Part shown: one piece after another, positions 701-21,825 of the stretch
Layout of the letters: every line of letters begins with the position of its first letter
Position numbering within the stretch: the stretch's first letter is position 1
Source: Fidelibacterota bacterium
GTDB taxonomy: Bacteria; Fidelibacterota; UBA2242; B5-G15
Reading direction: 5' to 3'
DNA: 64,000 nucleotides
Assembly (NCBI GenBank): GCA_017656425.1
Contig: JACDNV010000006.1
Coordinates: 42,542 to 106,541, forward strand
Position numbers and translations under genes: made by a program
The notes under the pieces: generated by a model
Told to the model about the DNA's origin: nothing
The model's database searches: none
What the model saw: the letters and a program-made list of their open reading frames with translations, nothing else

Positions 701-1513
701 ATGCTTGATTTAATAAAGCGAAGTATCAAAGGCATTCCAGACAGTGAGATGAAAGTTCACATCACCAGAGAATTTTTGCAATTACTTATATTAAAGATTA
801 TTTCCGATAAAGATTATTTTAAGAATCTCGCCTTTGTTGGGGGAACAGCATTGAGATTTCTTTATAGCCTAAGGAGATTTTCAGAAGACCTCGACTTTTC
901 ACTGATTAATAAAGAAGGTTATAAATTTGAGAGTTTTTTGGGAAAAATTACTTATGAATTAGAAAAATATGGCCTTTCTGTAGAGATTAAGAAAAGTGCA
1001 AAAGAACCTGTCCAATCCGCCATGGTTAAATTTAAAGATATTTTGTATCTTTTAGGATTATCCAGGCAAAAGGGCCGAAGACTTTCAATTAAGCTTGAAA
1101 TAGACTCAAATCCACCTGTGGGTTGGAATACAGAGCTTTCTTTAGTGAATAAGCATTTTGTTTTTACAGTCCTACATTTTGATATTCCCTCTCTTTATGC
1201 TACAAAGATTCATGCCTGTTTTTTTAGAAAATACATTAAAGGAAGGGACTTTTATGATCTCATATGGTACTTTGGGAAAAAGGCTATGCCTAATTTTGAG
1301 CTTCTCAATAATGCCATAGAGCAGACAGAAAAAAAGAGAATGGATTTAAATGCGAAAAATTTTAATGATTTTTTAAAAGAAAGATTAATAGGTATCGATT
1401 TTGCAAAAGTAAGGAAAGATGTAGAGAGATTTATAGAGGACAAGAACGAACTCAAATTATTGAACAGGGATGTGATTTTAAAACTTCTGAATAAAGAGTT
1501 GATGAGTTTATGA
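701..1513 (+). CDS. AbiEii/AbiGii-family nucleotidyltransferase toxin
   Basis: 270 aa. Carries the motif FVGGTALRFLYSLRRFSEDLDFSL (GGTAL...RFSEDLDF hallmark of AbiEii/DUF1814) and is coupled to the upstream AbiEi-like gene. Its C-terminal tail ELMSL* is encoded by the first GAGTT repeat array. Confidence 0.75.
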   Translation: MLDLIKRSIKGIPDSEMKVHITREFLQLLILKIISDKDYFKNLAFVGGTALRFLYSLRRFSEDLDFSLINKEGYKFESFLGKITYELEKYGLSVEIKKSAKEPVQSAMVKFKDILYLLGLSRQKGRRLSIKLEIDSNPPVGWNTELSLVNKHFVFTVLHFDIPSLYATKIHACFFRKYIKGRDFYDLIWYFGKKAMPNFELLNNAIEQTEKKRMDLNAKNFNDFLKERLIGIDFAKVRKDVERFIEDKNELKLLNRDVILKLLNKELMSL

Positions 1514-1550
1514 GTTTATGAGTTTAGGAGTTTAGGAGTTAGAGTTGGAG
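1496..1550 (+). repeat. GAGTT-core 7-8-nt tandem micro-repeat array, direct orientation
   Basis: Sequence gagttgat gagtttat gagtttat gagtttag gagtttag gagttag agttggag. It overlaps the AbiEii stop codon and ends 12 bp before the livH start. Confidence 0.9.
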
Positions 1551-1562
1551 TATTAATAAGAG

Positions 1563-2461
1563 ATGATACAACAACTAATAGTGAATGGAATTATTGCAGG
1601 AAGCATTTACGGCTTAGTCGCTATTGGATTCACAATTATTTACCGCACGGTTAAATTTTTTCATTTTGCCCATGGGGTGGTTTATACAATAGGGGCTTAC
1701 CTTGCTTACACTTTTATTAACTCACTAACCCATCAACTCCCAAACTCATTAACTGTTTATATAACCTCTTTTCTTCTATCCGTAATCCTTGCTGCTATTC
1801 TTGGAATCGCTATTGATAGATTAGTCTATTATCCTCTCCGACGGCAGAATGCATCAAATCTGATTTTTCTCCTTGCCTCATTCGGTGTTTTTATCTTTCT
1901 TCAGAATCTGATTCAACTCATATACGGGGCACAAATTCTCACGATTAGAACTGGACCCATAAAAGAGGGACACCATTTCCTTGGTGCAGTGATTACCGAT
2001 ATTCAAATCTTAATACTGGTGGTTTCCATCATTCTTATGATACTGCTCTGGTTCTTTATTCAGAAGACAAAACTAGGTAAGGCAATGAGGGCTGTTTCGG
2101 ATGATCCTTTAGCAGCAAATTTGTCGGTATAAATCCTGAAAAGATAATCATGTCCTCATTTGCTATTGGTTCTGCCCTGGCTGGTGCTGCTGGAATACTT
2201 ATTTCTTTTGAAACCAATATTGAACCCACCATGGGATTTAGTGCTCTTCTGAAAGGTATTATTGCCTCTATTATTGGTGGGATTGGCAGTATCCCTGGAG
2301 CTGTGCTTGGTGGATTCTTTCTTGGACTGGTTGAGAACCTTGGTATCTGGAAGATATCTGCTGGATGGAAGGATTGTATTGCGTTTGTAATACTCATAAT
2401 CTTTCTATTGATAGGACCATGGGGTTTATTGAGTAATAAAACGGAGAAATTGAGTTTGTGA
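1563..2461 (+). CDS. livH: branched-chain amino acid ABC transporter permease LivH, split by an apparent -1 frameshift near 2121-2125
   Basis: Track ORFs 1563..2132 (189 aa) and 2150..2461 (103 aa) together reconstruct one LivH-like permease, DDPLAANL|VGINPEKIIMSSFAIGSALAGAAG. The frames overlap at 2123; restoring one G in 'aatttg(g)tcggt' gives a continuous protein. Contains a 13-aa in-frame insert, SLTHQLPNSLT, encoded by the inverted repeat array. Confidence 0.8.
1718..1756 (-). repeat. GAGTT-core micro-repeat array, inverted orientation, in frame inside the livH N-terminal coding region
   Basis: Plus strand reads ttaactcactaacccatcaactcccaaactcattaactg; the reverse complement is GAGTTTGG GAGTTGATGG GTTAGT GAGTTAA. 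Together with array 1496-1550 it brackets the livH start. Confidence 0.8.
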
Positions 2462-2597
2462 GTTTGGGAGTTTGTGAGTTTGTGAGTTTGTGAGTTTGGG
2501 GGTTTGTGAGTTGGTGAGTTATGGAGTTAGGAGTTAGGAGTTAGGAGTTAGGGAGTTTAGGAGTTTAAGAGTTTAAGAGTTTAGGAGTTAGGGAGTT
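2452..2597 (+). repeat. GAGTT-core 7-8-nt tandem micro-repeat array, about 19 units, direct
   Basis: Units are (GAGTTTGT/GAGTTTGG)x7, then GAGTTAG x4 and GAGTTTAG/GAGTTTAA variants. It begins inside the livH C-terminus (EKLSL*) and ends exactly at the ATG of the four-helix-bundle gene. Confidence 0.95.
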
Positions 2598-3005
2598 ATG
2601 GCGAAAATAGAAAAGTTTGAAGATATTGAGGCCTGGCAAAAGGCAAGAAGTTTAGTTAAAGAAGTTTATAGAGTTTGTGGATTTGAGAGATACAAAAAAG
2701 ATTATAATCTTATTGATCAAACGAGAAGCTCTGCAATTTCAATTATAGCTAACATTGCAGAAGGTTATGCCAGACGAACAAATAAAGAATTTATAAATTT
2801 TCTTGGAATGGCACATGCTTCAGCAGCAGAGCTTCAATCACATCTTTATGTCGCTTTAGATCAGAGGTATATTTCTGATCAGGATTTTAGGATCATTTAT
2901 TCATTAGCAGATCAAGTTTCTAAAATGATCCAGGGCTTTATTACTTACTTGAAAAACTCCCAAACTCCAAAACTCAAGAACTCTCAACTCAAAAGGAAAA
3001 ATTAA
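2598..3005 (+). CDS. four-helix-bundle protein of the '23S rRNA intervening sequence protein' / DGR Avd family (PF05635-like)
   Basis: 135 aa. Residues EDIEAWQKARSLVKEVYRV...RSSAISIIANIAEGYARRTNKEFINFLGMAHASAAELQSHLYVA match the family consensus (W.kA..L....y......e.y.L..Q.rRaa.Si..NIAEG..R....ef..FL..A.gS..El.t.l..a). The C-terminal tail KNSQTPKLKNSQLKRKN is encoded by the inverted repeat array. The stop overlaps the livM ATG (TAATGG). Confidence 0.75.
   Translation: MAKIEKFEDIEAWQKARSLVKEVYRVCGFERYKKDYNLIDQTRSSAISIIANIAEGYARRTNKEFINFLGMAHASAAELQSHLYVALDQRYISDQDFRIIYSLADQVSKMIQGFITYLKNSQTPKLKNSQLKRKN
2953..2993 (-). repeat. GAGTT-core micro-repeat array, inverted orientation
   Basis: Plus strand reads aaaactcccaaactccaaaactcaagaactctcaactcaaa; the reverse complement is GAGTTGA GAGTTCTT GAGTTTTG GAGTTTGG GAGTTTT. 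This is the inverted partner of array 2452-2597 on the other side of the four-helix-bundle ORF. Confidence 0.85.
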
Positions 3006-3874
3006 TGGAACATTTACTTCATATATTAGTAATCGCTGGAATATACATCATCTTGACTCTGAGCCTTAATCTCATTGTTGGATATACAGGACTGCCTGCA
3101 CTGGGTCATGCAGCCTTTTCCTGCATTGGTGCGTATACGTCGAGTCTGCTTGCGCTGTATATTGGGGTATCCCCATGGATAGGATTATTGATAGGGGGAT
3201 GTTTGGCAGCTCTGTCAGGCATTATAATAGGATATCCTGCAGTACGATTAAAAGGGGATTATCTTGCTCTGGCAACATTCGGGATGGGAGTTATTGTTTA
3301 CTCCATCGCTAAGAACTGGGTATCCCTTACAAGGGGTCCAATGGGACTTCCCGGAATCCCCGGGTTTTCTATTTTTGGTATCCAGCTATCAGAGATATGG
3401 TCTTACCTGCTTCTGGTTTCGGTTTTTGTGGCAATTACCATATTTGTTATTAACAGGATAGTAAATTCTCCATTTGGCAGGATACTTCGGTCTATCAGAG
3501 AGGACGAAATTGCCTCAGAGGCTTTAGGAAAAAATACAACCAAATATAAACTCCTGGTTTTTATTATCGGAGCATTCTTTGCTGGTATTGCTGGAAGCCT
3601 TTATGCTCACTACATAACCTTTATTGACCCTTCAAGCTTCACTGTTATGGAATCCATAACCATTCTTCTTATGGTTATCTTTGGAGGAATGGGGAGCATA
3701 TCAGGTTCTATAGTGGGAGCAGTGGTTTTGGTAGTATTTCCTGAACTTTTGAGATTTCTTGGAATGCCGTCTTCAATCGCAGCGCCTATGAGGCAAATGA
3801 TATATGGATTGTTGCTCGTATCTCTTATGCTTAAAAGACCTCAGGGAATAATGGGGGTTTATAAGTTTAAGTAA
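3005..3874 (+). CDS. livM: branched-chain amino acid ABC transporter permease LivM
   Basis: 289 aa polytopic permease with LivM-like sequence (…NLIVGYTGLPALGHAAF…GYPAVRLKGDYLALATFG…), located between livH and livG. Confidence 0.85.
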   Translation: MEHLLHILVIAGIYIILTLSLNLIVGYTGLPALGHAAFSCIGAYTSSLLALYIGVSPWIGLLIGGCLAALSGIIIGYPAVRLKGDYLALATFGMGVIVYSIAKNWVSLTRGPMGLPGIPGFSIFGIQLSEIWSYLLLVSVFVAITIFVINRIVNSPFGRILRSIREDEIASEALGKNTTKYKLLVFIIGAFFAGIAGSLYAHYITFIDPSSFTVMESITILLMVIFGGMGSISGSIVGAVVLVVFPELLRFLGMPSSIAAPMRQMIYGLLLVSLMLKRPQGIMGVYKFK

Positions 3875-3910
3875 GTTTTTGAATTTATGAGTTAATGAGT
3901 GATGAGTTAT
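3863..3910 (+). repeat. degenerate GAGTT/AAGTT micro-repeat array, direct
   Basis: Sequence aagtttaagtaagtttttgaatttat gagttaat gagtgat gagttat. It spans the livM stop and the livG start. Confidence 0.6.
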
Positions 3911-4708
3911 ATTTTGCGAATAAAAAATCTTGTTAAGGAGTTTGATGGATTAAGGGCGGTAGATGACCTATCCTTTGATATTAAGAGAAATACTATCACT
4001 GCATTGATTGGACCGAATGGTTCAGGTAAGACCACTGTGTTTAACATAATAAGCGGTTTCTTAAAGCCAGAAGGAGGCAAGGTTATTTTTCAACTCAATA
4101 ACTCATCAACTCATGAACTCACAAAACTTAGTCCTTATAGAATAGCCAGACTGGGTATTTCGCGGACATTTCAGAATATCAGATTATTCCCCCAGATTAC
4201 GGTAATGGAAAATATGTTACTTTCGACCAGATATGAGAAGGGTGAAGGACTCATACCTGCACTTCTCCAGTCAAAGATCATGAAGGATGAGGAACGGAGA
4301 AATAGAGAAAAGGACATGGGATATCTTGAATTGGTAGGTCTTACTGATAAGAAAGATGAGCTTGCACAAAATCTATCGCATGGACAGAGAAGATTGCTTG
4401 AGTTAGCACGGGCACTGGCAACAGAAGCAGAACTCTTTTTACTGGATGAACCGACAGCAGGTGTCTTCCCAAATATGAGAATTAAGATTCTGGATGTGCT
4501 TGAGAAATTAAAAACCAAAGGCAAGACTATCCTACTCATTGAGCATGATATGAAGGTAGTGACAGGGATTTCCGATAATGTAATTGTGTTGAATTACGGT
4601 CAAAAGATTGCTGAAGGGCCTCCAGAGGTGGTAACCAGAGATGAGAGGGTTATAGAAGCCTATCTTGGCAAGAAAAGGAGTTCGGGAGTTGGAGAGTTCA
4701 GGAGTTGA
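3899..4708 (+). CDS. livG: branched-chain amino acid ABC transporter ATP-binding protein LivG
   Basis: Walker [10 protein letters not shown], signature [15 protein letters not shown], Walker [10 protein letters not shown]. 3899 is a GTG start; the first ATG is at 3902. Carries an in-frame repeat-encoded insert [17 protein letters not shown] before the conserved RIARLGI. The C-terminal tail GVGEFRS* is also repeat-encoded. Confidence 0.85.
4091..4128 (-). repeat. GAGTT-core micro-repeat array, inverted, in frame inside livG
   Basis: Plus strand reads caactcaataactcatcaactcatgaactcacaaaact; the reverse complement is GAGTTCATGAGTTGATGAGTTATTGAGTTG. Confidence 0.8.
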
Positions 4709-4714
4709 GGAGTT
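4677..4714 (+). repeat. GAGTT-core micro-repeat array, direct
   Basis: Sequence ggagttcg ggagttg gagagttca ggagttga ggagtt, overlapping the livG stop 6 bp before the livF ATG. Confidence 0.85.
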
Positions 4715-4719
4715 AAAAA

Positions 4720-5496
4720 ATGAACTATAATCAAAAAAAATTTGATAATAAATTTCTAACTCAAAAACTCACTAACTCAAAAACACATTTAACTCTTTTA
4801 GAAGTAAAAAACTTAACAGTACATTACGGCTCTGTCCTCGCTCTGGATGATATTTCTCTCTCTGTCAATGGGGGAGAAATTGTGGCAATGATAGGTCCGA
4901 ATGGTGCTGGAAAATCTACAGCTTTAAAGGCAATTTGTGGTCTTGTAAAATCCACATCAGGAGAAATCTTATTTCAGGGAGAAGATATAAATGGCAATCA
5001 GCCATATCAACTGGTTGAGAAAGGATTATGCCTTGTGCCAGAAGGAAGACGAGTTTTTACTTCAATGACTGTTTTAGAGAATTTGGAGATGGGAGCTTAT
5101 ACCAGAAATGATAAAAATATTCAGGAAGATATTGATAGAGTATTTACTTTATTTCCTGTTCTCAAGAAAAGACAGAAACAGAGAGCAGGAACATTGAGTA
5201 GTGGAGAACAACAGATGCTTGCTATTGGCAGGGCACTGATGCTAAAACCAAAACTGCTTTTATTAGATGAACCATCACTGGGACTTTCTCCAAATTATAT
5301 GGAAACTGTATTTGAAAAGATAAAAGAAATTAACAAAGAGGGAACTATAATTCTCCTCGTGGAGCAGAATGCCAGGATGGCTCTGGAATATGCTGATAGA
5401 GGCTATGTATTTAAAATAGGCAAAATTGCTTTTGAGGATAATGCAAAAAACCTCCTTGAAAATGATGAAATTAAACAGTCATTTTTAGGAGGATAA
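4720..5496 (+). CDS. livF: branched-chain amino acid ABC transporter ATP-binding protein LivF
   Basis: Walker A GPNGAGKST, signature LSSGEQQMLAIGRAL, Walker B LLLDEPSLG, plus the canonical LLEVKNLTVHYG start motif. An unusual 27-aa N-terminal extension contains repeat-encoded LTQKLTNSKTHLTL. Confidence 0.85.
   Translation: MNYNQKKFDNKFLTQKLTNSKTHLTLLEVKNLTVHYGSVLALDDISLSVNGGEIVAMIGPNGAGKSTALKAICGLVKSTSGEILFQGEDINGNQPYQLVEKGLCLVPEGRRVFTSMTVLENLEMGAYTRNDKNIQEDIDRVFTLFPVLKKRQKQRAGTLSSGEQQMLAIGRALMLKPKLLLLDEPSLGLSPNYMETVFEKIKEINKEGTIILLVEQNARMALEYADRGYVFKIGKIAFEDNAKNLLENDEIKQSFLGG
4757..4795 (-). repeat. GAGTT-core micro-repeat array, inverted, inside the livF N-terminal extension
   Basis: Plus strand reads ctaactcaaaaactcactaactcaaaaacacatttaactc; the reverse complement contains GAGTTAG GAGTTTTT GAGTTAG. 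Paired with 4677-4714 around the livF start codon. Confidence 0.8.
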
Positions 5497-5622
5497 ATTA
5501 AGAAAAATATTTATCATACTTTTAAAAAGTAAAGGGAATAGAAAGACACCATAAACTTGTAGATTCAAGTATATAACCAAGGACATTTATATAAATTTTA
5601 GTAAGAAGTAGGTGTAGAGGTT

Positions 5623-5874
5623 TTATCTATTATAATTGAAATAGAATTGGTAGGATGAAGCTTTAACAAGGAAATCTTTTACTGAGCTGAATGATTCTAT
5701 GCAGTAGAATTCGTCTTCGATTAATCTGTGAGAGGATTCTACATTGGCATTAGCATTGGGGTAATGTGTCCGTAGGATCCCTAATCGGGATAGGTTATGT
5801 TTTTTACTTATCTTTGATTCTTTTCCCAAAAATCTCACAGAGAATAGCCAGTCAATGGGGTATGGTCTTATCAC
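5623..5874 (-). pseudogene. C-terminal remnant of a DDE (rve-type, IS3/IS481-like) transposase/integrase
   Basis: Only 83 aa, starting at a GTG. The sequence ...LRTHYPNANANVESSHRLIEDEFY...SFSSVKDFLVKASSYQFYFNYNR resembles the end of the rve core domain (R.h.P..NG.vER.hRtlkeEf....F.s..el...l..y..YN..RPH). There is no N-terminal catalytic region. Confidence 0.45.
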
Positions 5875-6094
5875 TCATTACCCTCAATTTAATCAATTCT
5901 ATTGTACCATTATATGCATGAAATTTTCAGAAAATGGATAAAAAATATTTTGATTTTTGAAGTATTTTTTATTATACTTAAAAAGTAACATAAGAGAAGT
6001 AAATGCGTCAGGTTCATGTTCATAAGGGTAATTCGGGCGGAATTAGGGATTATTTTTTGTATGATCCTTTTCTAACAAATAATAATGAGAAAAT

Positions 6095-6484
6095 GTGATT
6101 AAATTTATGAATAATAAACAGTTAACAATTAACGAGCGAAATGAATTAGGTAGCCATGAAGAGCAACTTTTGCTTTTTTCATTAGTACCCCCTAATTTTA
6201 TGTTAGCCGATCGAAATAGTGGAGGATATGATATGAAAAGATGTTATGAATTGAAGAATTGTGGAATGGACAAGAAGTCCCCAGAAGAAGGTAGTTGTCC
6301 AGCCTATGCATCAAGTACAGATTGCTGGTACTATGACTGGGAATCCTTCTGGAAAGAGATGGCAGATGGTCCAGAAAAGGAAGAAGGAAAGAAGGGAATG
6401 TTAGCTGACTGCTCTTCTTGTCCGGTGAGAGAAGTACACAAAGAGGAAGTGGATCTGTTCATGTCAAAGGTTCGTCAAGTGTAG
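6095..6484 (+). CDS. hypothetical Cys-rich small protein (six Cys, possible metal-binding)
   Basis: 129 aa with spacing C-x5-C-x11-C-x8-C ... C-x2-C. No recognised family. It is the first ORF of the island. Confidence 0.3.
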   Translation: MIKFMNNKQLTINERNELGSHEEQLLLFSLVPPNFMLADRNSGGYDMKRCYELKNCGMDKKSPEEGSCPAYASSTDCWYYDWESFWKEMADGPEKEEGKKGMLADCSSCPVREVHKEEVDLFMSKVRQV

Positions 6485-6613
6485 AGTGGTTGATCTGAAT
6501 GTACCGAAGAGTAGCAAATGACGGCTAACAACGCCATGCACCCTGACGCGAATTCCGCTGCGCTCCATTCCCGCCGGTGATGGCGACATTATGTTGCTAC
6601 GTGTAGCTGATAG

Positions 6614-7075
6614 GTGCGAGAGAAAATGAAGAGGATGTTGTGGATTCCAATCGCCTACATGGCAGTTTTCGGCGTATTGCTGCTTATTGCCTGGCCCCAT
6701 CTTGATGCCACGGGAACCATCGGTGTGGTAAGCGTACTCGGAGGCGGCTTAGCCGGCGTGGTCGGCGCATTCGTTGGTGCGGTGGTCGCCCTGCAACGGA
6801 TAGAAAAGGAGAGCCAGACCAAGATCAAAGAATCTGCCGCCTCCCAAGCCCTGGAGCTCACGAAACTCGAGATTGGCCTACGATTGAAGGAGGGCAAGCA
6901 ACACCAACTCTTGGCAGCCGCCAAGATCTATCGTGAATTCTACAAGGCTCTCTTCAAACTCTATGACACTAAGAGGTGGCCTAAGGAAATTGAACAGCAA
7001 GGGCTCATCAACATTTACGACTTCGGCGGAGGTCATCCATCTGATGCGAAAGGTCAAGACGAAGAGGCCACATAA
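6614..7075 (+). CDS. hypothetical membrane-anchored coiled-coil protein encoded in a GC-rich foreign block
   Basis: 153 aa with an N-terminal TM helix, a Gly/Ala-rich second helix and a charged helical tail. Its GC content is much higher than the flanking DNA. Confidence 0.4.
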   Translation: MREKMKRMLWIPIAYMAVFGVLLLIAWPHLDATGTIGVVSVLGGGLAGVVGAFVGAVVALQRIEKESQTKIKESAASQALELTKLEIGLRLKEGKQHQLLAAAKIYREFYKALFKLYDTKRWPKEIEQQGLINIYDFGGGHPSDAKGQDEEAT

Positions 7076-7159
7076 CAATTCACTCCAGCCGACCGCTCGG
7101 CTTAGCCTCGCGGCGACTGAGTTAGAGCGTTATGTAAATTATTACAGAAGGAGTTAAAG

Positions 7160-7717
7160 ATGCCAATATATGAAGATTTAAAAAATGAATTACAAGAAAT
7201 TTCAGAAATATTATCTAAATTTCCTGAATCTATCCAACCTAAAGTTTTTGATATTTTAATAAACAATTTTCTAGGTCGAACAGGAAGTGAAAAAATGAAC
7301 AAAAAAGAAAATGATATAGACAAAAAAACAAAAGATAAAAAAGGTTCTAAACGGAAAATATCTTCAAAAGAAACCTTCACAATAGTTAAGGATTTAAATT
7401 TAATGGGACCAAAAGATAAACCAACTTTTAAAGATTTTTATGGTGGAAAAAAACCAAAATCAAATATAGAATTTAATGTAGTTTCGATTTACTATTTAAA
7501 AAAGATACTTAATATAGAAAAGGTAAATCTTAATCATATTTATACTTGCTATAAAGAAGTGGGAAGGAAAATTCCGAGCAATTTAAAGCAGAGCATATAT
7601 GATACTTCAGGTCCCAAATACGGTTACATTGATGCGAGTAATTCAAATGATCTAAAATTACCCACTACTGGCGAGAACCTCGTTGAGCATGAACTGCCTC
7701 GAAAAAAGAAAAAATAG
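7160..7717 (+). CDS. hypothetical Lys-rich protein
   Basis: 185 aa with good SD (aaggagttaaagATG) and an AT-rich, K-rich sequence. No recognisable motif. Confidence 0.35.
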   Translation: MPIYEDLKNELQEISEILSKFPESIQPKVFDILINNFLGRTGSEKMNKKENDIDKKTKDKKGSKRKISSKETFTIVKDLNLMGPKDKPTFKDFYGGKKPKSNIEFNVVSIYYLKKILNIEKVNLNHIYTCYKEVGRKIPSNLKQSIYDTSGPKYGYIDASNSNDLKLPTTGENLVEHELPRKKKK

Positions 7718-7726
7718 GATATTAAA

Positions 7727-8488
7727 GTGGATACTAAAATTTTACTTGAAAATATACCTAGTAAGATTCGTGATGAGCTATTTAATGCATTTAATGAAAT
7801 CTTAAAAAACTATCGTGAACAAAGATGGGAACCATCTGAACTGAATGGCGGAAAACTTTGTGAAATTATTTACACAATACTAAATGGCTATATAAATGGC
7901 CAAATTCCTGACAAACCTAAAAAGCCCAATAATTTCGTTGATGCTTGTAGAAAATTAGAATCATCCCCTACGTCTTTTTCACATTCAATAAGAATACAAA
8001 TACCAAGAATGTTGATAGCTTTATATGAAATTTGAAATAATAGAGGTGTTGGGCATTCTGGAGGCGATGTTAATCCTAATAAAATGGATGCTACAGTTGT
8101 TGTTTATATGAGCAAATGGTTAATGGCTGAGTTAATCAGAATATTTTACAAAATTGATTCAGATGAAACACAATTAGCAATCAATAATATTATTGAAACC
8201 ATTATTCCTGTTGTATGGGAAGTAGATGGAAAGTTAAGAATACTTCACCCTGAATTGAAAATGAAGGATTCTACTTTATTGCTTTTGTATCATTCAAGAA
8301 ATGGTTTAAGTGAAAAGAAGTTAGTTGAAAATTTAGAACATTCAAACCTGTCTGTGTATCGACGGGATATTTTAACAAAACTTCATAAGAAACGTTTCAT
8401 AGAATTTAACGAAAAAACCAAAATAGCAAAGATTTCGCCAAAAGGGAGAAATTATGTTGAGAATAATCTTTTAAAAAATTTAACATAA
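7727..8488 (+). CDS. hypothetical protein split by a single in-frame TGA at 8033-8035 (two ORFs in the same frame)
   Basis: ORFs 7727..8035 and 8084..8488 are both in frame 2 and are separated only by one TGA. Read-through would give ...LIALYEI*NNRGVGHSGGDVNPNKMDATVVVY... (about 253 aa). Confidence 0.35.
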
Positions 8489-8689
8489 CAAAACGCTCCG
8501 CCTGACCGCCATTCCGCTGGCATCTTATAGCGGTAGGTGAGATTGGTAGTTAGTAAAAAAGAAGAAAGTAGAAATTGTGAAACTACAAAACCCAATTGAT
8601 AACACAGGCTATATGCTATTAAAACGACATATAGCCTTAACCGCTAGACGCAACGCCTATTTTGATATCTGAAAATGTTGTGGTGAACT

Positions 8690-9715
8690 ATGACAAATAA
8701 AGTAGGTCGTAAAGAGATTGTATACAGAGACAATACTATTGATAGGGAGAATCTTCCACTTCCAATAGTGCTCTACCCTGGATTCTACGGGGCTTTTTTT
8801 GGTTTTCGGCAAACAGAAGTTTCTCCCATTATCTTGTGTTCATGCGCGAAAGAGGCAATCGAAAACTATCTGAGGTTCCGGATATCGAAGCCGATTCCAC
8901 TAAATACAGACCCTGGCAGAATGTTCGTTTTGGATTCTATGTACTTTCCACGAGCTCTAGTTGACATTTTGATGAAGCACAATGTACAAAATAACTATAA
9001 AGTAATTAATCACCTTCTATTTGAAAACAATCTTTGTCACGAGTGTAATGGGGTTATCCCAAAATATCGTTACTGTCACGAAATGTATGGAGGCGCATTT
9101 AAGCAAAACTATGGGTGGTACATAAATAAACAGGCATACGAATTTGGTATTGAACCGATATCAAACCGTGTACTTCCTGAGGTATGTCCAAGGGAAATAC
9201 TAGAAATTATCAAGCTCGACCCTATAGAAACACCCAAACGTTATCAGGAATTAGTAGAAACCAACCCTGCTGAGGCAGATAGGTTATGGAAGAAATTTCA
9301 AAAACAGAACAGGCGCGTTTGGAATATCATTGAAAACGAGGTAAGACAAAAATTTGGGCATAGAAAAATCGGGGAATCCTGGACTAGCGAAACCATTCTG
9401 TATTACATCGTACAGTCTCTTTTCCAAGACATGACTGTTATAAGACACTATCGCTCTGAATTCCTTCAAGGATTAGAACTTGATATATTTATTAAAGAAC
9501 TAAAAGTAGGTATTGAGTATCAAGGTATACAGCACTTTGAGCCAGTGGATCACTGGGGTGGTATAAAAGCTCTGCAGAAATTAAAGGCACGAGATAAAAA
9601 GAAAAGAGATATATGCAAATCTTCGGGCATAGATCTTATCTACTTTAAATATGACGAAGACTTAAGCAATGATTTGGTATTGGCTAAGTTAAAAAAATAC
9701 ATTGAAAAATTTTAA
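8690..9715 (+). CDS. fusion protein: N-terminal Cys/His cluster domain plus C-terminal DUF559/Vsr-like PD-(D/E)xK endonuclease domain
   Basis: C-terminus ...RSEFLQGLELDIFIKELKVGIEYQGIQHFEPVDHWGG...DKKKRDICKSSGIDLIYFKYDE matches the DUF559 restriction-endonuclease-like fold (D..i.e.k..IEvdG.qH...D..r...l...G..v.Rf). The middle region has LCHECNGVIPKYRYCHE, a zinc-finger-like motif. Confidence 0.5.
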   Translation: MTNKVGRKEIVYRDNTIDRENLPLPIVLYPGFYGAFFGFRQTEVSPIILCSCAKEAIENYLRFRISKPIPLNTDPGRMFVLDSMYFPRALVDILMKHNVQNNYKVINHLLFENNLCHECNGVIPKYRYCHEMYGGAFKQNYGWYINKQAYEFGIEPISNRVLPEVCPREILEIIKLDPIETPKRYQELVETNPAEADRLWKKFQKQNRRVWNIIENEVRQKFGHRKIGESWTSETILYYIVQSLFQDMTVIRHYRSEFLQGLELDIFIKELKVGIEYQGIQHFEPVDHWGGIKALQKLKARDKKKRDICKSSGIDLIYFKYDEDLSNDLVLAKLKKYIEKF

Positions 9716-9841
9716 ACTTGGCACTGCTTCTAACGGTGAATAAAAGGCTTCGCTATGCTTCACCTAAATTGTCTTCGGCAACTTCTATTATCCGAAAACC
9801 TTTATACGCCATTGCTTGTAATGGAATGGAGGTTATAAACC

Positions 9842-10741
9842 ATGATGCATAAAGGGACACGAACTACAGGTGGGAATATGCCTGCAAAACTTAAACAGAA
9901 AGTCAATAAACTATTAGACGAATTCGGAACCTTAGTCCAAGGCATTTCACAGGAGCGTCATCTTCAGAGAGCAGTTGTAAGAAGTTTGTTAACTTGTAGC
10001 TTAGTAGCGCTTTTGGACAAGAACAACCTTTTCATCCTTGCGCAGCGTCACTTTGGGATGCCGTCCTCTCTATTTATTTATGTTCCTGAAAAGCAACTAA
10101 CCCCACAGCAAGCATTAGGTAGTGCTCGATGGGAATTTGGCCTTGAGGACCCGTTTCTGATCGTTTTCCCAAGCGCGTTGCTCGAACAAGAGGAAGTACA
10201 ACGGCGGCCAGCATTAGAGGCAATTGCTGTTGCTCATGTTGATTCCGAATTTCAGAGGGTAATAAAGATGACAAGTCTTATACAAATCAATCCATTATTT
10301 GGTCCTGCATCATATAGTGTAGATGAGCGATTAGCTTTCGTACTTATGCCTTTTGCTGAGGATCTAACAAGGGTCTATACTTCCATTATCAAGCCCACGG
10401 TTGAGGCGACAGGTTTAGTTTGCCGTCGCGCTGATGATTTCAAAACTAATAAAGCGATAATTCAAGATATTTGGAAAGCAATCTGTGAAGCACGAATCGT
10501 TATTGCCGACCTTACTGATTTGAATCCCAATGTGATGTATGAGCTAGGAATTGCACATACAGTTGGTAAAGAGACAATTTTGATCTATCAACGTGGAAGA
10601 GGAAAGGATCCCAAGTTCCCATTTGATCTGGCACATATTCGAAGAATACAATACGAGGACAGTGCTACGGGTGGGAAGAAATTAGAAAACGACCTTTCCG
10701 ATACATTGAAATCTATACTTGAACCAACAGCAGTATCTTAA
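9842..10741 (+). CDS. SLOG-superfamily / nucleoside 2-deoxyribosyltransferase-like domain protein (C-terminal) with an unknown N-terminal domain
   Basis: C-terminal domain LAFVLMPFAEDLTRVYTSIIKPTVEATGLVCRRADD...IWKAICEARIVIADLTDLNPNVMYELGIAHTVGKETILI follows the NDT/LOG-like Rossmannoid pattern (vF..mPF ... viAdlt..NpNV.yElG.A.a.GKpvi). Confidence 0.45.
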   Translation: MMHKGTRTTGGNMPAKLKQKVNKLLDEFGTLVQGISQERHLQRAVVRSLLTCSLVALLDKNNLFILAQRHFGMPSSLFIYVPEKQLTPQQALGSARWEFGLEDPFLIVFPSALLEQEEVQRRPALEAIAVAHVDSEFQRVIKMTSLIQINPLFGPASYSVDERLAFVLMPFAEDLTRVYTSIIKPTVEATGLVCRRADDFKTNKAIIQDIWKAICEARIVIADLTDLNPNVMYELGIAHTVGKETILIYQRGRGKDPKFPFDLAHIRRIQYEDSATGGKKLENDLSDTLKSILEPTAVS

Positions 10742-10894
10742 AATTACCATAAGAATAGCAACGGCGTATACCAGAGTGTATATGGCTTCGGTTTCGCCTC
10801 CGTTCAAATTCCTCGCTTTGCTTTAAACTTCGGATATGTCCGGATCGTTATATGACATCTGGCTTCAGTTATTTCACAAAGTAGTGAAGTAAAT

Positions 10895-11695
10895 ATGATG
10901 ATCAATATCGACTATAAAAGCGGAATTAAAACCCTTCTGGATGAGTATAAGGGGGTTCTTAACGAAGAAATTAAAAAGGGATTGGAATGGAGACACAAAA
11001 TAGAGAGTAGAAAATTGTCCTGTGAAGATCAACAGGAGTTATTGAAAGATGTAATTGCTCAATTACTTGTTCAGGGGAAAAGTGCAAAGGGAGTAGAAAT
11101 ACAGATCAATAACATTAAAGAAGTAATTGGAGAATGGAGTACAAAAAACGTTGAGAAAAACTTGGATACTTTGGGAATGTCAAACAGGAAAATACAGAAG
11201 TTGAGAGATATTTTACAGTATTTAAAAAGCAACTCTATTGCTGTTTGGGTAATTAAACTGCATGAAGATAACAATCACATACCTCGTATGGGATTAAAAA
11301 GCGATGATGATTTTCTCAAATCCCATGGTTTTTATGAACATTTACCTGTTGACAGGCATACTCAACGTTTTTTATTTAGAACAGGCATAATTCAGTGGTA
11401 TCTAAAGAAAAATAACGATGATGTGTTAACCTTGTTTTCGGAAACATATGAAAAGAAATATAAATTTTTCCAGAAAATCGTAGTAGCACTTTGTGAAAAG
11501 TTCTGTGATGATGTATACATACAGATTCCAGATGTAAAGTTGAGATTAGCAGAAAATCCAGGCATTCTTGACATTGTGATATGGCGTCATTGTGGAGAAG
11601 ATGAAAATCTGGGTTGTAGAAATATCTGTGGAAATATATCAAGATGTAATGAATGTGTATTTAAGGAGGCTTGTTTATGGCATTTATTGAAATAA
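10895..11695 (+). CDS. Endonuclease III-like HhH-GPD superfamily protein with C-terminal Cys cluster (putative [4Fe-4S])
   Basis: IPRMGLKSDDDFLKSHGFYEHLPVDRHTQRFLFRTGII matches the HhH motif plus the VDTHVxRVxxR motif of EndoIII/MutY (LPGVGrKTA.....fg.p..PVDTHV.RV..Rlg). The C-terminus CGEDENLGCRNICGNISRCNEC resembles the EndoIII FeS loop (C-x6-C-x2-C-x5-C). Confidence 0.45.
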   Translation: MMINIDYKSGIKTLLDEYKGVLNEEIKKGLEWRHKIESRKLSCEDQQELLKDVIAQLLVQGKSAKGVEIQINNIKEVIGEWSTKNVEKNLDTLGMSNRKIQKLRDILQYLKSNSIAVWVIKLHEDNNHIPRMGLKSDDDFLKSHGFYEHLPVDRHTQRFLFRTGIIQWYLKKNNDDVLTLFSETYEKKYKFFQKIVVALCEKFCDDVYIQIPDVKLRLAENPGILDIVIWRHCGEDENLGCRNICGNISRCNECVFKEACLWHLLK

Positions 11696-12216
11696 TCTCG
11701 AAGCTCAATGCCTCGCTACCATCATGGTTTGCCCTTATGATTTAGTTCGAAATAAAAATATGGTTACCCTTTATGGACAATTTTCCAACATTGCATTTGA
11801 GATTTGGAAATACAATAAATAAGGAAGTATTTGCGCATACGCCCCGTAGTCTCAGTTCTTATTGATTAACATCGGGATTGCCTATGATCCGTGCCTGCTC
11901 TCCATTTTACAGGCTCCCAAAGATTCTTACCCTCGTTGGCTTTGTTCCGATTTCTATTATGAAAGACTTTTTATAGTTAAAGAAGGAGAAGAAGTCTTCA
12001 TTTTAACAGAGCTGGATTTGAATTAAAAAGATAAATCTATTAATGATAAATGTATCTTTTAAAAAAACACACCAGACAGGTGTCATCGTAAGATTGCGTT
12101 TTAACTTAGTCGAAACAGGAAAGAGGTATATCTATTCCCACCAATTACCCTAATAAAAATCGATATTTAATTCATTCGCTACTTTTTCCTAAAAATGTAA
12201 AATGATTAGGTGGGAT

Positions 12217-12903
12217 TTATTTAATTTTTTGCATTATTATTAAATACTTAAATCCTCTTAAATAGAAATTATACTTTTTAGCTCTTTGATGCCAGATGGG
12301 AGTATTTGAAGTCTGATTATGTCTTGCCACACAGACAATATCTACTGGTTTAAAATATTTTTCGAGAATAGAGTACATCTTAAATCCTACTGGTACAAAT
12401 ATTTTCTTTTTTGCTTGATCTCCAATAAGCCAAGCAATATACTTTCCTTTCTTTAAAATTCGATGTGCTTCTTTTGCAACCTTATCTAATTCTTCGAAAA
12501 ATCTGGGATTTTCACAAGAAATATTACCAATATTGTCTGGGCGGTCATTGTACCTAATGTTGTCTGAATAAGGTGAATCTATAAAAACAAAATCTGCTAC
12601 CCCGTTCTTTAATGGTAATCTTCTAGCGTCGGCTTGTTTTATATCCTTCCTATAAGGAACAATATCAAAACCTAAAACCTTTCGTTTTTCCTCTTTGCAA
12701 ACATCAATAGTAGTTCCACTCCCACACATTGGATCTACTACTAATTCACCTTCTTTGGTGTATCTCTGAATTAAATTCCAAATAACGAATGCAGGAGTTA
12801 CTCCTCTATATTTATTGTCTCCGTGAGGTCTATTACCATAATTTTGTGTTGGATAGTCCCAAAGAGTTGTGGTTTCAAATGGAGGCTTATTATTATTTCT
12901 CAT
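12217..12903 (-). CDS. DNA methyltransferase (N6-adenine or N4-cytosine), R-M methylase 1
   Basis: Motif I VVDPMCGSGTT and motif IV FIDSPY ((D/S)PPY-type). First gene of a three-gene M-R-M operon on the minus strand. Confidence 0.8.
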   Translation of the reverse strand: MRNNNKPPFETTTLWDYPTQNYGNRPHGDNKYRGVTPAFVIWNLIQRYTKEGELVVDPMCGSGTTIDVCKEEKRKVLGFDIVPYRKDIKQADARRLPLKNGVADFVFIDSPYSDNIRYNDRPDNIGNISCENPRFFEELDKVAKEAHRILKKGKYIAWLIGDQAKKKIFVPVGFKMYSILEKYFKPVDIVCVARHNQTSNTPIWHQRAKKYNFYLRGFKYLIIMQKIK

Positions 12904-13579
12904 TCTCCAGTAATTTTTTTAGATCATCAATGAAATGTTCAAAGAGTTTTACTTTATCACTTTCCTCAACTTCTTCATCAGTTAAAACATAACTTCCATC
13001 TAGATCTATCTCAACGATAGCTCTCCCTTTTTTAGGAGGAACTTTTCGTGTTAGAGTTCCATCTTCATCAGGGGTAATGAAGTAAACTTTAACGTGTTCG
13101 GTTGCTCTATCCTGTGAAAGTTTAAGCTTCCAATAACCTGTTTGGGCAATCCGTTCTCTCAAGGTCACCTTACTTGAAATAGCAGCCAAAACCTTACAAT
13201 TCTCTGGATTATAAATAATTATATCAACATCTGGTAGATGCAAGCCAAATTCACCATAATCAATTGCTAAGTTCCTTTTCACTTGACTCAGCTCTTTAGA
13301 TAAATTTATTGTTCTTTCTAATTTATTTCCATTAACAACTTTTAACCCAAGTTCTTCAACTTCATCAGTAATAATATATTGAACTAACTTTTCTAGATTT
13401 TTACCCTTAAATGCTCTCCAGCTTTGTTCATGATCTCCATTTGGGGTAGGATTCTTTAACCAGTCTTGTCTATGAATCTCTTTTGCTTCTTTTAATAATT
13501 CCGAAATATGCTTGTATGCGTTTACTCCAAACTTCTTTTTTTTCTTTAAATATAAATTCTTTAAATCTTCGAAATTCAT
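12893..13579 (-). CDS. putative Type II restriction endonuclease
   Basis: 228 aa ORF translationally coupled between two methyltransferase genes (overlap at 12893-12903, 4-bp gap at 13579/13583). Possible PD-(D/E)xK-like segment LPDVDIIIYNPENCK. No strong family match by eye. Confidence 0.4.
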   Translation of the reverse strand: MNFEDLKNLYLKKKKKFGVNAYKHISELLKEAKEIHRQDWLKNPTPNGDHEQSWRAFKGKNLEKLVQYIITDEVEELGLKVVNGNKLERTINLSKELSQVKRNLAIDYGEFGLHLPDVDIIIYNPENCKVLAAISSKVTLRERIAQTGYWKLKLSQDRATEHVKVYFITPDEDGTLTRKVPPKKGRAIVEIDLDGSYVLTDEEVEESDKVKLFEHFIDDLKKLLENEK

Positions 13580-13582
13580 TTT

Positions 13583-14932
13583 TTACTCCTTTAAGCCAAT
13601 TATAATATATTCAAAGGGGTAGGCTTCTGAATTTGCTTTATCATTATTAGCAAATCTCCCTGTCTTTTCATCCCTTTTTTGAGGAAGTATTTTTAGGGGG
13701 ATTTCCCTTTTTATGATTTTATCCAATTTAAACCCTGAATATTGTAAACTCTCTGAAAAAACTTCAGCATTTAAAATGCTTATACCTTTCAATACAGTAT
13801 TACCAATTACATAGCAACATCGTCCCCCTCTTTTTAAAATCCTATAACTTTCATCAAATACATCTTGCATATCGATAAAAAAAGTCTCGATCTCTTTAGC
13901 CATCTTTTTACTCTTTTGCTTCATTTTATCAACGATATTTTTAGCTATAATACTTTTCAATTTTCTCTTTTCTGAAAGCTTGTAAGCAGAACCAATGAAC
14001 TTTTTTTTATATGCCGTCAAATTATCTGCAAAATCCAACCAGATAGTAGAAAGTTGATGTAAATCAGCGTATTCATAGCTGGTTACATAAGGACTTGAGC
14101 TAACAATTAAATCTACACTATTATCCTCAACAGGCTGTTTTTTAGCATCTTGTGCTTTTATGTTTAAATATTTTATTAGATTTTCTCTAACCTCTTGAGG
14201 CACTACTTTATAAAATTCTTCATTCCCCTTTTGCATCTTTTTTAAATGTCTTCTAAACACTTCCAATGGATCGGCAGGCTTTTTTTTTAAATCTCTTGTA
14301 GGTTTAGTGCTTCCTTGAAGCCATATAGAACAATTCTTTAAAATATGACTAAAAGCTATTAATAAGAAATCTCTTATAATTTCGTCATATTCTTCGTAAA
14401 TTACCCTCAAAATTTTCCCCAATTCAATTTTGTTTTTTTCATCAAACCAATAATTTATTCTTTCGATATGTCTTTCTGGAATTAATGGAGTAATATCTTT
14501 AGAAAATAGTCCAGATAGTCTAATTAAAGTCCGTTCTATTTTCTTTTCTAGATAATTAGGATCAATTGGTGTAGACTTTACCTTTGTCATTAAATAAGCT
14601 ATTTTATTTATGTCCGTTCCACTTGCTTTAAATCCTCTCGAGATAGCAGTAACAATTGTCGTTCCACTACCCATAAAAGGATCATTAATATGAGCATCTT
14701 TAGTAGTTATATATTCATCAATTAACCTTTCTACCAATTGAGGAATAAATTTTGCTGGATATCGATGATAACAATGTGTCCATTTACCTGTATCTTTTGG
14801 TTTTAATTCATTAAAGGACCAACTCTTATCAATTTGTAATTCTCTAAAAAGCTGCAAAATATCTGTATGGTTAAAATAATTAACTTGAGATGTTAGCATT
14901 TCATTTCGTTTTATTTCGCTCACTAGTTTCAC
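13583..14932 (-). CDS. DNA methyltransferase (N6-adenine or N4-cytosine), R-M methylase 2
   Basis: Motif I INDPFMGSGTT and motif IV IVSSSPY with a long spacer (target-recognition domain). 14932 is a GTG; the first ATG (MLTSQ...) is at 14896, so the true start may be 14896. Confidence 0.8.
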   Translation of the reverse strand: MKLVSEIKRNEMLTSQVNYFNHTDILQLFRELQIDKSWSFNELKPKDTGKWTHCYHRYPAKFIPQLVERLIDEYITTKDAHINDPFMGSGTTIVTAISRGFKASGTDINKIAYLMTKVKSTPIDPNYLEKKIERTLIRLSGLFSKDITPLIPERHIERINYWFDEKNKIELGKILRVIYEEYDEIIRDFLLIAFSHILKNCSIWLQGSTKPTRDLKKKPADPLEVFRRHLKKMQKGNEEFYKVVPQEVRENLIKYLNIKAQDAKKQPVEDNSVDLIVSSSPYVTSYEYADLHQLSTIWLDFADNLTAYKKKFIGSAYKLSEKRKLKSIIAKNIVDKMKQKSKKMAKEIETFFIDMQDVFDESYRILKRGGRCCYVIGNTVLKGISILNAEVFSESLQYSGFKLDKIIKREIPLKILPQKRDEKTGRFANNDKANSEAYPFEYIIIGLKE

Positions 14933-15100
14933 TATACCTATTCCTTTCTATCCATTTATAAATAGCTTTTTTTAAATCTTCAATTGCCACCGACTTTAAA
15001 AGAGAGGATTTTTTCTTTCTTTAGCAAGCCTGTAAATAGTCTTTTTGGTCATCTTTAAATAATTAGCAATTTCTTTTATAGTCATAATGTCTGTTTTCAT
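14901..15100 (-). pseudogene. small HTH DNA-binding gene (excisionase/AlpA-type), apparently disrupted; candidate R-M controller
   Basis: Minus-strand ORF from the ATG at 15100 encodes MKTDIMTIKEIANYLKMTKKTIYRLAKERKNPLF* (consensus MTIKEIAeYLkvSkxTIYRLvkeGkiPafKvGg). The expected continuation FKVGGN and ...IEDLKKAIYKWIE... lie in two other frames downstream, implying indels in A/T runs. Confidence 0.35.
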
Positions 15101-15533
15101 TGCTAATTCCCTATGATAATTCTTTAGAATCTGGATATACTATACAAATCAATTAAAATAAAGTCAAGAAAATTGTATGAAATTTTACAATATTTTCCAT
15201 TTTAAGGAAATAATAACAAATTAATGAAATATTGATTTTCATTAGGTTAGCAAGTAGGAATAGATATTCCTTTTTGTCCCGGTAATAATCGGGACATAGG
15301 CTGACGAAAGCACTTATCTTGAGTAGGCTTTTTACTAAAAAAAGACTTCCTGAAAAATATCTTATCTTTTAAAAACTTTGTAAATTAAAAACTAAAATAT
15401 TTCTTTCCTTCTCTTAAAAACAAAATATATCTCAATAACAACCAGGGATAAAATCCAAACAATTTCACATAATCCATTTTTTCACTAAAAAAATTTTTAT
15501 AACTTTGCAACAACTTTACTGGAGGCAGGCTTT

Positions 15534-21180: not shown

Positions 21181-21825
21181 TGCCGAACTGGGAATGGGAG
21201 GAAGTATTATTAAATTTATAGATCAGGGGCATGAGGTAATTGTAGTTGATATGACCAGTGGAGAGCCAACCCCCTGTGGCACCCCGAAAAAAGGAAGAAG
21301 GAGACAATGGAAGCTTCAAAGATTCTCGGTCTAAAACGGAGAATCAATCTTGGACTTGAGAACAGGTATCTTATAGACTCTAAAGAAACCAGAATAAAAG
21401 TTGCCGAACAAATAAGAATTTTCAAACCGGATATATTATTTTGCCCTTACTATCAGGACGCACACCCGGATCACATAGCAACCCATTCAATAGTAAAAAG
21501 TGCAAGATTTTACTCAAAATATACCAGAACCGATATGAGTGGTGAACCACATTATGCATCTAATTTAATTTTCTATTTTTGCACTCATCTAAGAATAAAT
21601 CATCCATTCAGTTTCTTGATTGATATTTCAAAATATTTTTCCAAAAAAATAAAATCAGTCGCCTGCTACCGGTCACAATTTATAGAAAATATAAAAAACA
21701 GGGGCATATTCAGGTCAATATCTTCACAAAACAGTTACTGGGGATCTTTAATCAGAGCAAAGTTTGCTGAAGCTTTCTATTCCGAGGAAGCGCTCAAAAT
21801 AGAAGATATTGACACAATCTTATGA
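21128..21825 (+). CDS. PIG-L/LmbE family N-acetylglucosaminyl deacetylase, interrupted by a 1-nt frameshift in an A6 run (21287-21292)
   Basis: ORF 21128..21334 has IISPHPDDAELGMGGSIIKF...VVVDMTSGEPTP, and ORF 21307..21825 continues with ...EASKILGLKRR...HPDH.... Adding one A to the gaaaaaagg run gives a continuous ...TPKKRKKETMEASKILGL... protein. Confidence 0.7.

Follow-up and report, generated by a model that had tools for sequence, protein, structure and literature searches.

We analysed a stretch of 64 kb, hereafter the window, from a contig of a Fidelibacterota bacterium (JACDNV010000006.1, positions 42,542 to 106,541 of the forward strand). Our interest was in the region 5600-15250, which the initial annotation had described as a horizontally assembled defence island of mosaic GC content. 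LivG/LivF-type ABC ATPases border it on the left and a fusion of homocysteine S-methyltransferase and methylenetetrahydrofolate reductase on the right, in agreement with the liv operon and the metH-metF-like gene that had been named as its flanks. The region is made up of three or more units of separate origin: the remnant of an insertion sequence (IS), a cassette array, and a restriction-modification (R-M) module bounded by inverted repeats. We deal mainly with the second of these, a row of genes and GC-rich spacers between 6202 and about 11780, which we interpret as an array of integron-type cassettes.

The compositional outliers reported earlier are real. Over the window the mean GC content is 0.349 (1-kb windows, standard deviation 0.035), and the maximum among all 1-kb windows, 0.457, falls at 6001-7000, where windows of 400 nt at 6401-7000 reach up to 0.53 against a background of about 35%. 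The open reading frame (ORF) 6614-7075, with a GC content of 0.528 and 0.61 at third codon positions, is the strongest outlier in the 64 kb, while the long ORFs of the rest of the window (n = 38) have a mean of 0.352 ± 0.032 and a maximum of 0.414. Between 6.1 and 11.7 kb every ORF lies on the plus strand and is followed at its 3' side by a GC-rich spacer. The six spacers between same-strand ORFs (GC 0.53, 0.49, 0.40, 0.40, 0.40 and 0.35) are indeed enriched over 17 other intergenic stretches (0.27 ± 0.08; Mann-Whitney P = 6e-4). The description of the ORFs in between as very AT-rich holds for 7160-8488 (GC 0.27-0.30) and not for the remaining ones (0.33-0.42).

Integron arrays are an established means by which microbes accumulate foreign genes; their cassettes are excised as circles and inserted singly. 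Their recombination site, attC, is an imperfect palindrome between an R'' box ending in AAC and an R' box beginning with GTT; the bottom strand folds to a hairpin, and a tyrosine recombinase cuts and rejoins between the G and the TT of the latter. A cassette would thus be a short promoterless unit of zero to two genes with an attC at its end, and cassettes taken up from different donors would leave jumps in GC content at their junctions. The features of the array are listed here under names that follow this reading, all of them on the plus strand.

6202-6208, plus strand: first junction (J0), core GTTAGCC, start of cassette 1
6203-6593, plus strand: cassette 1, 46% GC, with the ORF 6233-6484 for a Cys-rich protein of 83 residues
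6523-6599, plus strand: attC_1, R'' GGCTAAC/TAACAAC and R' GTTGCTA
6594-7129, plus strand: cassette 2, 53.5% GC, with the ORF 6614-7075 for a protein of 153 residues with two predicted membrane helices
7070-7135, plus strand: attC_2, canonical 66-nt site ACATAAC...GTTATGT, with the stop codon of the ORF inside R''
7130-8549, plus strand: cassette 3, 29.6% GC, with the ORF 7160-7717 and a HEPN-like gene at 7727-8488
8483-8555, plus strand: attC_3, ACATAAC...GTTAGTA, R'' overlapping the stop codon
8550-8643, plus strand: cassette 3b, 94 nt without an ORF, 31% GC, between R' of attC_3 and attC_3b
8597-8649, plus strand: attC_3b, TGATAAC...GCTAGAC, short hairpin, core GTT changed to GCT
8644-9801, plus strand: cassette 4, 37.5% GC, with the ORF 8690-9715 (orf8690) for 341 residues
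9728-9807, plus strand: attC_4, TTCTAAC...TTTATAC, first base of the core GTT changed to T
9802-10847, plus strand: cassette 5, 42% GC, with the ORF 9842-10741 (orf9842) for 299 residues
10766-10853, plus strand: attC_5, GTATACC...GTTATAT, AAC of R'' changed to ACC, L boxes poorly complementary
10848 to about 11780, plus strand: cassette 6, 33% GC, with the ORF 10895-11695 (orf10895) for 266 residues
11736-11786, plus strand: last attC, a decayed AT-rich remnant at the distal end of the array, ATAAAAA...ATTTTCC, AACATTGC

The spacers have the anatomy of attC sites, in which a box ending in AAC (twice ACATAAC, with the stop codon) comes first, imperfect inverted repeats follow and a box beginning with GTT comes last. 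The clearest case is attC_2, whose hairpin contains bulged bases (-15.3 kcal/mol, z = -3.4) and was equalled by only one of 200 shuffled sequences; its R boxes are complementary at all seven positions. The hairpin of attC_3b also stands out from shuffled sequence (z = -2.9). The bottom strand of attC_1 gives an imperfect hairpin with one bulged base (-14 kcal/mol, z = -0.9), and its L'' box ends in a CTGAC motif that is frequent in external attC sites. No clean hairpin was found for attC_3 (fold against shuffles, z = -0.2), and the minimum-energy fold of attC_5 contains no global hairpin.

An independent test came from a covariance model, R1, built from 14 attC sites that all stem from unrelated metagenome loci and none from the window. 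Compensatory changes occur at 9 of the 11 L-box helix pairs in its alignment, 83% of the cells are paired compared with 28-44% when the partner is slid, and the observed covariation was reached in none of 500 shuffles. Scanned without filters against both strands of the full 64 kb, R1 gave two significant matches only, both full-length and on the plus strand, at 9728-9807 (40.2 bits, E 3e-7) and 10766-10853 (38.3 bits, E 9e-7), that is, attC_4 and attC_5. Its marginal matches coincide exactly with 7070-7135 and 8597-8649. On 94 other loci all 35 matches lay on the strand of the cassette gene, and new sites appeared 3' of the PDC-S19 (DUF3644) and GmrSD genes of contig L085. A second model, R2, trimmed to 48 columns and to the R-box pairs only, was uninformative, its best match in the window being attC_2 at E 3.8. 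A crude hairpin scanner (AAC...GTT, forced pairing) was dropped; it recovered attC_2 along with many long false positives within genes.

For a CALIN, IntegronFinder's term for clustered attC sites that lack an integron integrase, we required two or more sites on the same strand, separated by less than 4 kb, each of 55-140 nt with R''/R' boxes and an imperfect L''/L' stem. The two R1 matches are 960 nt apart on the plus strand, and the canonical hairpin at 7070-7135 adds to them.

The cassette ends fit together as well. The core of J0, GTTAGCC, is identical to the R'' box of attC_1 (GGCTAAC) when reverse-complemented, and the R'' heptamer of attC_3, identical to that of attC_2, is the exact complement of the 5' end GTTATGT of cassette 3, so that the 5' end matches the cassette's own R'' at seven of seven positions in cassettes 1 and 3. 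In cassette 5 the first 14 nt (TTATACGCCATTGC) are, with one mismatch, the reverse complement of the run into its own R'' (GCAACGGCGTATA). Such complementarity is expected if both ends make up one attC in the excised circle. Over the array, 20 of 28 variable positions are complementary between an R' box and the R'' box of the next site, compared with 39% for non-adjacent pairs (P ~5e-4). At J0 the GC content rises from 0.30 to 0.46, and a GGAGG ribosome-binding site follows ahead of the ATG at 6233. In order, the cassettes have GC contents of 0.46, 0.535, 0.30, 0.31, 0.375, 0.42 and 0.33, and the steps fall on the junctions, as they would if each cassette came from a different donor.

Cassettes 4, 5 and 6 were shown to occur elsewhere as discrete units that are bounded at G|TT and stand beside other neighbours. 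Homology to cassette 5 at the DNA level was found in six loci with differing neighbours, bacterial and archaeal, and it begins at 9802, immediately beyond the crossover point. In L085, L090 and L091 a canonical R' box spans this point (...GGAC G|TTATAC...), and the homology sets in directly 3' of its G. The gene is then followed by a canonical attC of its own, GTATAAC...GTTATCC in L085, ...GTTATAT in L092 and GTATAAC...GTTAGGC in the archaeal contig L093. Cassette 4 is 94% identical to L175 and L176, where the neighbours differ, and the identity is limited to 8639-9734, running from G|TTAGAC in those contigs (GCTAGAC in the window) to the AAC of the R'' box. Cassette 6 is 85% identical to L170-L174 within 10850-11735; there it lies 3' of pheS and an integrase remnant, and the homology starts at the R' box GTTATAT. 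Its homologue in L172 ends in an intact attC, ATATAAC...GTTATGC, whose R'' box is the complement of the cassette start. Cassettes without an ORF, such as 3b, are present in L085 too.

The three families are widespread. For orf9842 there are more than 1400 homologues of about 300 residues, mostly on short contigs, with at least 53% identity among the best 120 listed, archaeal ones included; their labels span Planctomycetota, Burkholderiales, Odinarchaeota, Heimdallarchaeaceae and Methanomethylophilus, thus including Asgard and other Archaea. At least 682 homologues of orf8690 come from Bacteria and Archaea. Taken together, the families of cassettes 4, 5 and 6 recur at 50-80% identity in contigs labelled Odinarchaeota, Heimdallarchaeaceae, Methanomethylophilus, Nanoarchaeota, Hecatellales and Thermococcus, and in Bacteria. 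Two other readings of these genes were rejected. A two-gene system of orf8690 and orf9842 is contradicted by L087 and L089, in which the orf9842 homologues are preceded by genes with no relation to orf8690. Viral contigs carry the C-terminal domain of orf9842 only, at no more than 41% identity and with no full-length relative, which speaks against a phage origin.

In the light of these results, we consider it very probable, at roughly 0.85, that the stretch from 6202 to about 11780 is an array of seven integron-type cassettes, all on the plus strand and without a nearby integrase. If the GC-rich spacers are attC sites, the mosaic GC content is explained by cassette-wise capture. At least in its distal half the array is probably inactive and decaying, since core or hairpin has been lost in four of the seven sites. 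Only attC_1, attC_2 and attC_3 keep both the AAC and the GTT core intact. Contigs of the same strain from short reads (run SRR13776093), 100% identical to the window, break at 5663 in the IS remnant, at 6159 just before J0, at 9852 just inside cassette 5 and at 11777 at the distal end; such breaks are typical at repeated or variable cassettes.

The array is classed as a CALIN because the window and the 5.3 kb to its left (contig L083) yielded no integrase, no attI site and no integrase remnant. With IntI1 as query (confirmed as PRK15417, 799 bits), tblastn gave no match in the window at E<=1e-3 and no remnant within 5451-6300. The first junction is marked by GTTAGCC at 6202, and promoter-like matches upstream of it are at chance level. 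A complete integron, with an intI gene that carries the IntI-specific domain beside the array, was thus not found here.

Several points weigh against our interpretation. In addition to the integrase, an attI site and a Pc promoter were not found in the window. The sites attC_1 and attC_3 were read by hand, fold no better than shuffled sequence and were missed by both R1 and R2. Several sites do not have the conserved GTT or AAC triplet. Some of the site positions entered in the complementarity test were picked by eye, and the test counts as supporting evidence only. Finally, the recombinases at related arrays, the gene in L175 and a remnant in L170-L174, are co-oriented with the cassettes, do not contain the IntI domain and score below the cut-off for integron integrases.

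This last point is the basis of the strongest alternative, in which the same architecture is run by a Xer-like recombinase as a distinct integron-like platform common to Bacteria and Archaea, of which the window would contain an orphan array. In L175 the homologue of cassette 4 is one of several consecutive genes with attC sites between them, and immediately ahead of this row lies a tyrosine recombinase that NCBIfam names 'site-specific tyrosine recombinase/integron integrase'. The recombinase gene (2707-3804, 365 residues, Xer-like) is found immediately upstream of and co-oriented with an array of the same attC family, in a contig that also has a Tn7-like TnsB gene. It does not contain about 39 residues at the position of the extra domain of IntI1, passes the NCBIfam cut-off of the XerA type (246 vs 220 bits) and fails that of integron integrases (237 vs 265). 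In L170-L174, at about 5032-5139, a C-terminal recombinase remnant that is 83% identical to it occupies the same position after pheS. These two are the only recombinases seen beside this attC family, and both have the orientation of the cassettes; an IntI1-like fragment occurred only in L142, which matches just the C-terminal domain of orf9842. Nevertheless, they represent two independent contexts only, on short contigs, and a true intI could sit elsewhere; given the Tn7-like transposase, the L175 recombinase could also belong to another element. Moreover, no classical feature of an attC is missing from the sites, and CALINs normally rely on an integrase supplied in trans (PMC9668308). On balance we regard this alternative as unlikely.

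A broader version of the idea takes the distal attC family (...CCAAAT...CTTCGG...ACTTCG...) as the mark of a cassette pool of Bacteria and Archaea that is served by a Xer-like, co-oriented recombinase without the IntI domain, with its most promiscuous one-gene cassettes, those of orf9842 and orf8690, as new stand-alone anti-phage effectors. We put it forward as a doubtful proposal. If true, there would be an integron-like platform that current integron finders score merely as CALINs.

Next comes the generic defence island, formed by independent insertions at a hot spot, with spacers that have no function of their own. It draws on the defence genes around the array, namely the AbiEi/AbiEii pair at 62-1513, the MmeI-like methylase and SNF2 helicase on L083 and the R-M operon, and on the PADLOC match of orf9842; the neighbours of homologous cassettes include the PADLOC candidates PDC-S19, PDC-S32 and GmrSD. 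What it leaves unexplained are the structured, strand-specific sites recovered by an independent model, the homology edges at G|TT and the complementarity between cassette 5' ends and R'' boxes; nor was a complete known defence system recognised in the array. We therefore consider it quite improbable. The earlier description as a defence island survives to the extent that the region is horizontal, mosaic, partly defence-like and ends in an R-M operon; it has to be corrected in that the GC-rich spacers are, by our interpretation, attC sites and the genes between them an array rather than loose islands.

That the spacers are ordinary terminators or hairpins of the repetitive extragenic palindromic type within one native operon would suit co-oriented, closely spaced ORFs and the hairpins in some spacers, but it is close to negligible, as the spacers contain no T-tract terminators save a weak one within attC_1, adjacent genes lie far apart in GC content overall and at third codon positions, three of the genes are found elsewhere beside other neighbours, and R1 is silent in the rest of the window.

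The cargo of the cassettes is consistent with small, single-gene functions in defence or acting on nucleic acids, as far as predicted folds allow. The Cys-rich protein of cassette 1 and the membrane protein of cassette 2, both already listed in the initial annotation, are apparent from the translations; the former has no Pfam or PADLOC match. None of the cassette proteins matched a family in NCBIfam. With PADLOC, orf9842 gave a moderate match to a model of a TIR-type effector (E 5e-9), and two weak matches were found besides among the cassette proteins; the PADLOC matches in cassette 3 are weak. Searches with Pfam, PADLOC and NCBIfam recognised no complete known defence system inside the array, and the R-M operon is the sole recognised defence system within 5600-15250. 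In related arrays the PADLOC candidates PDC-S19, PDC-S32 (AbiJ_NTD4) and GmrSD are found as cassettes.

The predicted structure of orf9842 has a mean confidence (pLDDT) of 85. Its C-terminal 140 residues match the fold of DNPH1/Rcl, MilB and BcmB (Foldseek probability 1.0, TM-target 0.7-0.8), while a conserved α/β domain of 145 residues is added at the N-terminus. A Y-E-L-G motif, invariant in the family, contains E234 and is presumably the catalytic-Glu motif of the nucleoside 2-deoxyribosyltransferase (NDT) superfamily. No match to solved structures was obtained at the sequence level, and the Pfam family Nuc_deoxyrib_tr was hit below threshold (E 0.0085). Hydrolysis of a nucleotide glycosidic bond is a likely, though predicted, activity of this protein. 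The fold match thereby backs the NDT-like part of the protein called SLOG/NDT-like before.

For orf8690 the predicted structure has a pLDDT of 91, with invariant Cys and His residues in the N-terminal half. Its C-terminal domain resembles I-Bth0305I homing-endonuclease and Vsr folds, best 3r3p and 1vsr (probability 1.0), which agrees with the nuclease fusion proposed earlier, albeit at weak E-values of 0.03-0.08. A profile of orf10895 found an archaeal N-glycosylase/DNA lyase in the PDB (E 0.005), and Pfam gave Ogg-HhH (E 0.009); the protein carries a C-terminal Cys cluster. The endonuclease III-like protein of the initial annotation is thus reflected in weak HhH-GPD/Ogg signals only.

In cassette 3, 7727-8488 is a single gene cut by an in-frame TAA at 8033-8035, which sits at the conserved Arg of an R-N-x-R-G-x-G-H motif of the intact homologue in L126 (278-1495). 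Judged from the sequence, the stop codon likely inactivates a HEPN-like protein, itself likely toxic, at its putative catalytic residue. L126, which is GC-rich over 193-2641, has in a row a candidate relative of ORF 7160, seen as a likeness of layout by eye without an alignment match, then the intact homologue and then a protein of 361 residues. The C-terminus of the latter corresponds to the NDT-like domain of orf9842, and an attC-like hairpin follows at 2660-2719. This layout hints at a possible functional link between cassettes 3 and 5.

Outside the array the following features were mapped.

5623-5874, minus strand: C-terminal fragment of a DDE (rve-type) transposase, between livF and the array (Pfam rve_3, E 1.3e-4)
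12120-12203, no strand: left inverted-repeat arm, 84 nt (BLAST)
12217-12903, minus strand: N6_N4_Mtase methyltransferase, 228 residues (Pfam E 2e-21; PADLOC MTase_II E 3e-29)
12893-13579, minus strand: type II endonuclease of the BsaWI family, 228 residues (Pfam RE_BsaWI E 1e-35)
13583-14932, minus strand: second N6_N4_Mtase methyltransferase, 449 residues (Pfam E 2e-15; PADLOC MTase_II E 2e-58)
14996-15100, minus strand: short HTH_17 ORF, 34 residues as called (weak HTH_17 match on the identical contigs L081 and L082)
15192-15275, no strand: right inverted-repeat arm, 84 nt (BLAST)

The M-R-M operon at the end of the region was identified correctly: Pfam places RE_BsaWI between two N6_N4_Mtase genes in overlapping or adjacent frames, as in a type II R-M system. 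The inverted-repeat arms are 79% complementary (BLAST E 3e-15) and have no further copy in the window. As these 84-nt repeats flank the operon, we see it as a discrete module, which suggests that 12120-15275 (3.2 kb) is a separate mobile insertion outside the array. With other BsaWI-type systems it shares the endonuclease between two N6_N4 methyltransferases, and it differs from them by the inverted repeats and by the truncated helix-turn-helix gene upstream. The frame of this HTH_17 ORF (14996-15100) seems to run on in another frame past an A-run; it may be a frameshifted or truncated gene of a controller or an excisionase-like protein.

The degraded DDE transposase at the left border is plausible from its peptide, which looks like a C-terminal portion as expected, whereas the rve_3 match (22 bits) stays below the gathering cut-off of 26.5. 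No terminal repeats bound the full 9.6-kb region, the sole long repeat pair being that around the R-M operon, and no tRNA, tmRNA or Rfam family was found across the window. DNA matches of 5600-12200 to plasmids or phages were not found. The best genome in the species collection by the MetH-MetF protein, a metagenome-assembled genome of Neomarinimicrobiota (63% identity), has only a PAP2 gene in common with this locus, and the adjacency of liv and metHF is absent from it.

To the left of the region, a complete AbiEi/AbiEii pair at 62-1513 (PADLOC E 3e-56 and 5e-75) directly precedes the liv genes, and contig L083 of the same strain carries, further left, an HTH_17 gene, RadC, the SNF2 helicase and the MmeI-like methylase/Eco57I protein. 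The variable, defence-rich neighbourhood thus exceeds 5600-15250. The first liv permease gene is broken up into the ORFs 1563-2132 and 2150-2461, both BPD_transp_2, and no gene for a substrate-binding protein was found upstream of the liv permease genes; the liv operon may be damaged. Seven tandem arrays of 21-146 nt, made of a GAGTT-containing octamer (GAGTTTGG, GAGTTTAT, GGAGTTAG), lie on either strand, at the junctions of the liv ABC genes or close to them, and within the 64 kb are restricted to 1496-4787. Two opposed arrays, 2452-2597 (plus) and 2955-2990 (minus), flank a 23S_rRNA_IVP/bAvd-like ORF (2598-3005) between permease genes. Elsewhere in the window, a PIG-L family gene at about 21140-21825 is divided into ORFs of 64 and 172 residues, as in the identical contig L081, and is intact as a single gene of 228 residues on L082, a contig with 99.4% identity; the split is probably a frameshift in this strain. 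Neighbouring genes include those for type IX secretion and SusC/D-like proteins, which, together with the flank match to Neomarinimicrobiota, suggest that the host belongs to the FCB group.

According to Ghaly et al. 2022 (PMC9668308), CALINs occur widely in both Bacteria and Archaea, and cassettes are transferred from one domain to the other. The array shares with CALINs and sedentary chromosomal integrons the tandem, co-oriented short cassettes with attC ends, the RYYYAAC...GTTRRRY boxes around an imperfect hairpin, a cargo mostly of obscure function, the compositional mosaic and the lack of a nearby integrase. In contrast to them, it has sites with mutated core triplets (GCT, TTT, ACC) or a lost hairpin and mixes at least two attC classes within one short array. 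The occurrence of the families of cassettes 4, 5 and 6 in Archaea and Bacteria resembles the archaeal integrons; the IntIs reported from Archaea have the IntI-specific domain (PMC9668308), which the recombinase beside the related array in L175 does not. Integron cassettes have also been reported to encode phage defence (bioRxiv 10.1101/2024.07.02.601719). The cassettes described here are similar in being small one-gene units with nuclease-like or nucleotide-targeting domains, but no validated system is represented among them, and one of the candidate toxins is encoded by a pseudogene. In its C-terminal domain orf9842 has the fold of the N-glycosidases DNPH1/Rcl and MilB/BcmB, from which the additional N-terminal domain of 145 residues sets it apart.

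Overall, the known picture of integrons is unchanged. What is gained is that the vague label of a mosaic island gives way to a precise and testable mechanism, in which the GC mosaic would be the footprint of capture at attC sites, and an integrase-less, partly fossilised array from an AT-rich bacterium that is uncultured. For three of its cassettes, the gene families pass between the bacterial and the archaeal domain. Two of the three products, the DNPH1-fold, N-glycosidase-like protein and the fusion with a Vsr-fold nuclease, form big, highly conserved families of single-gene cassettes and are candidates for functional screens.

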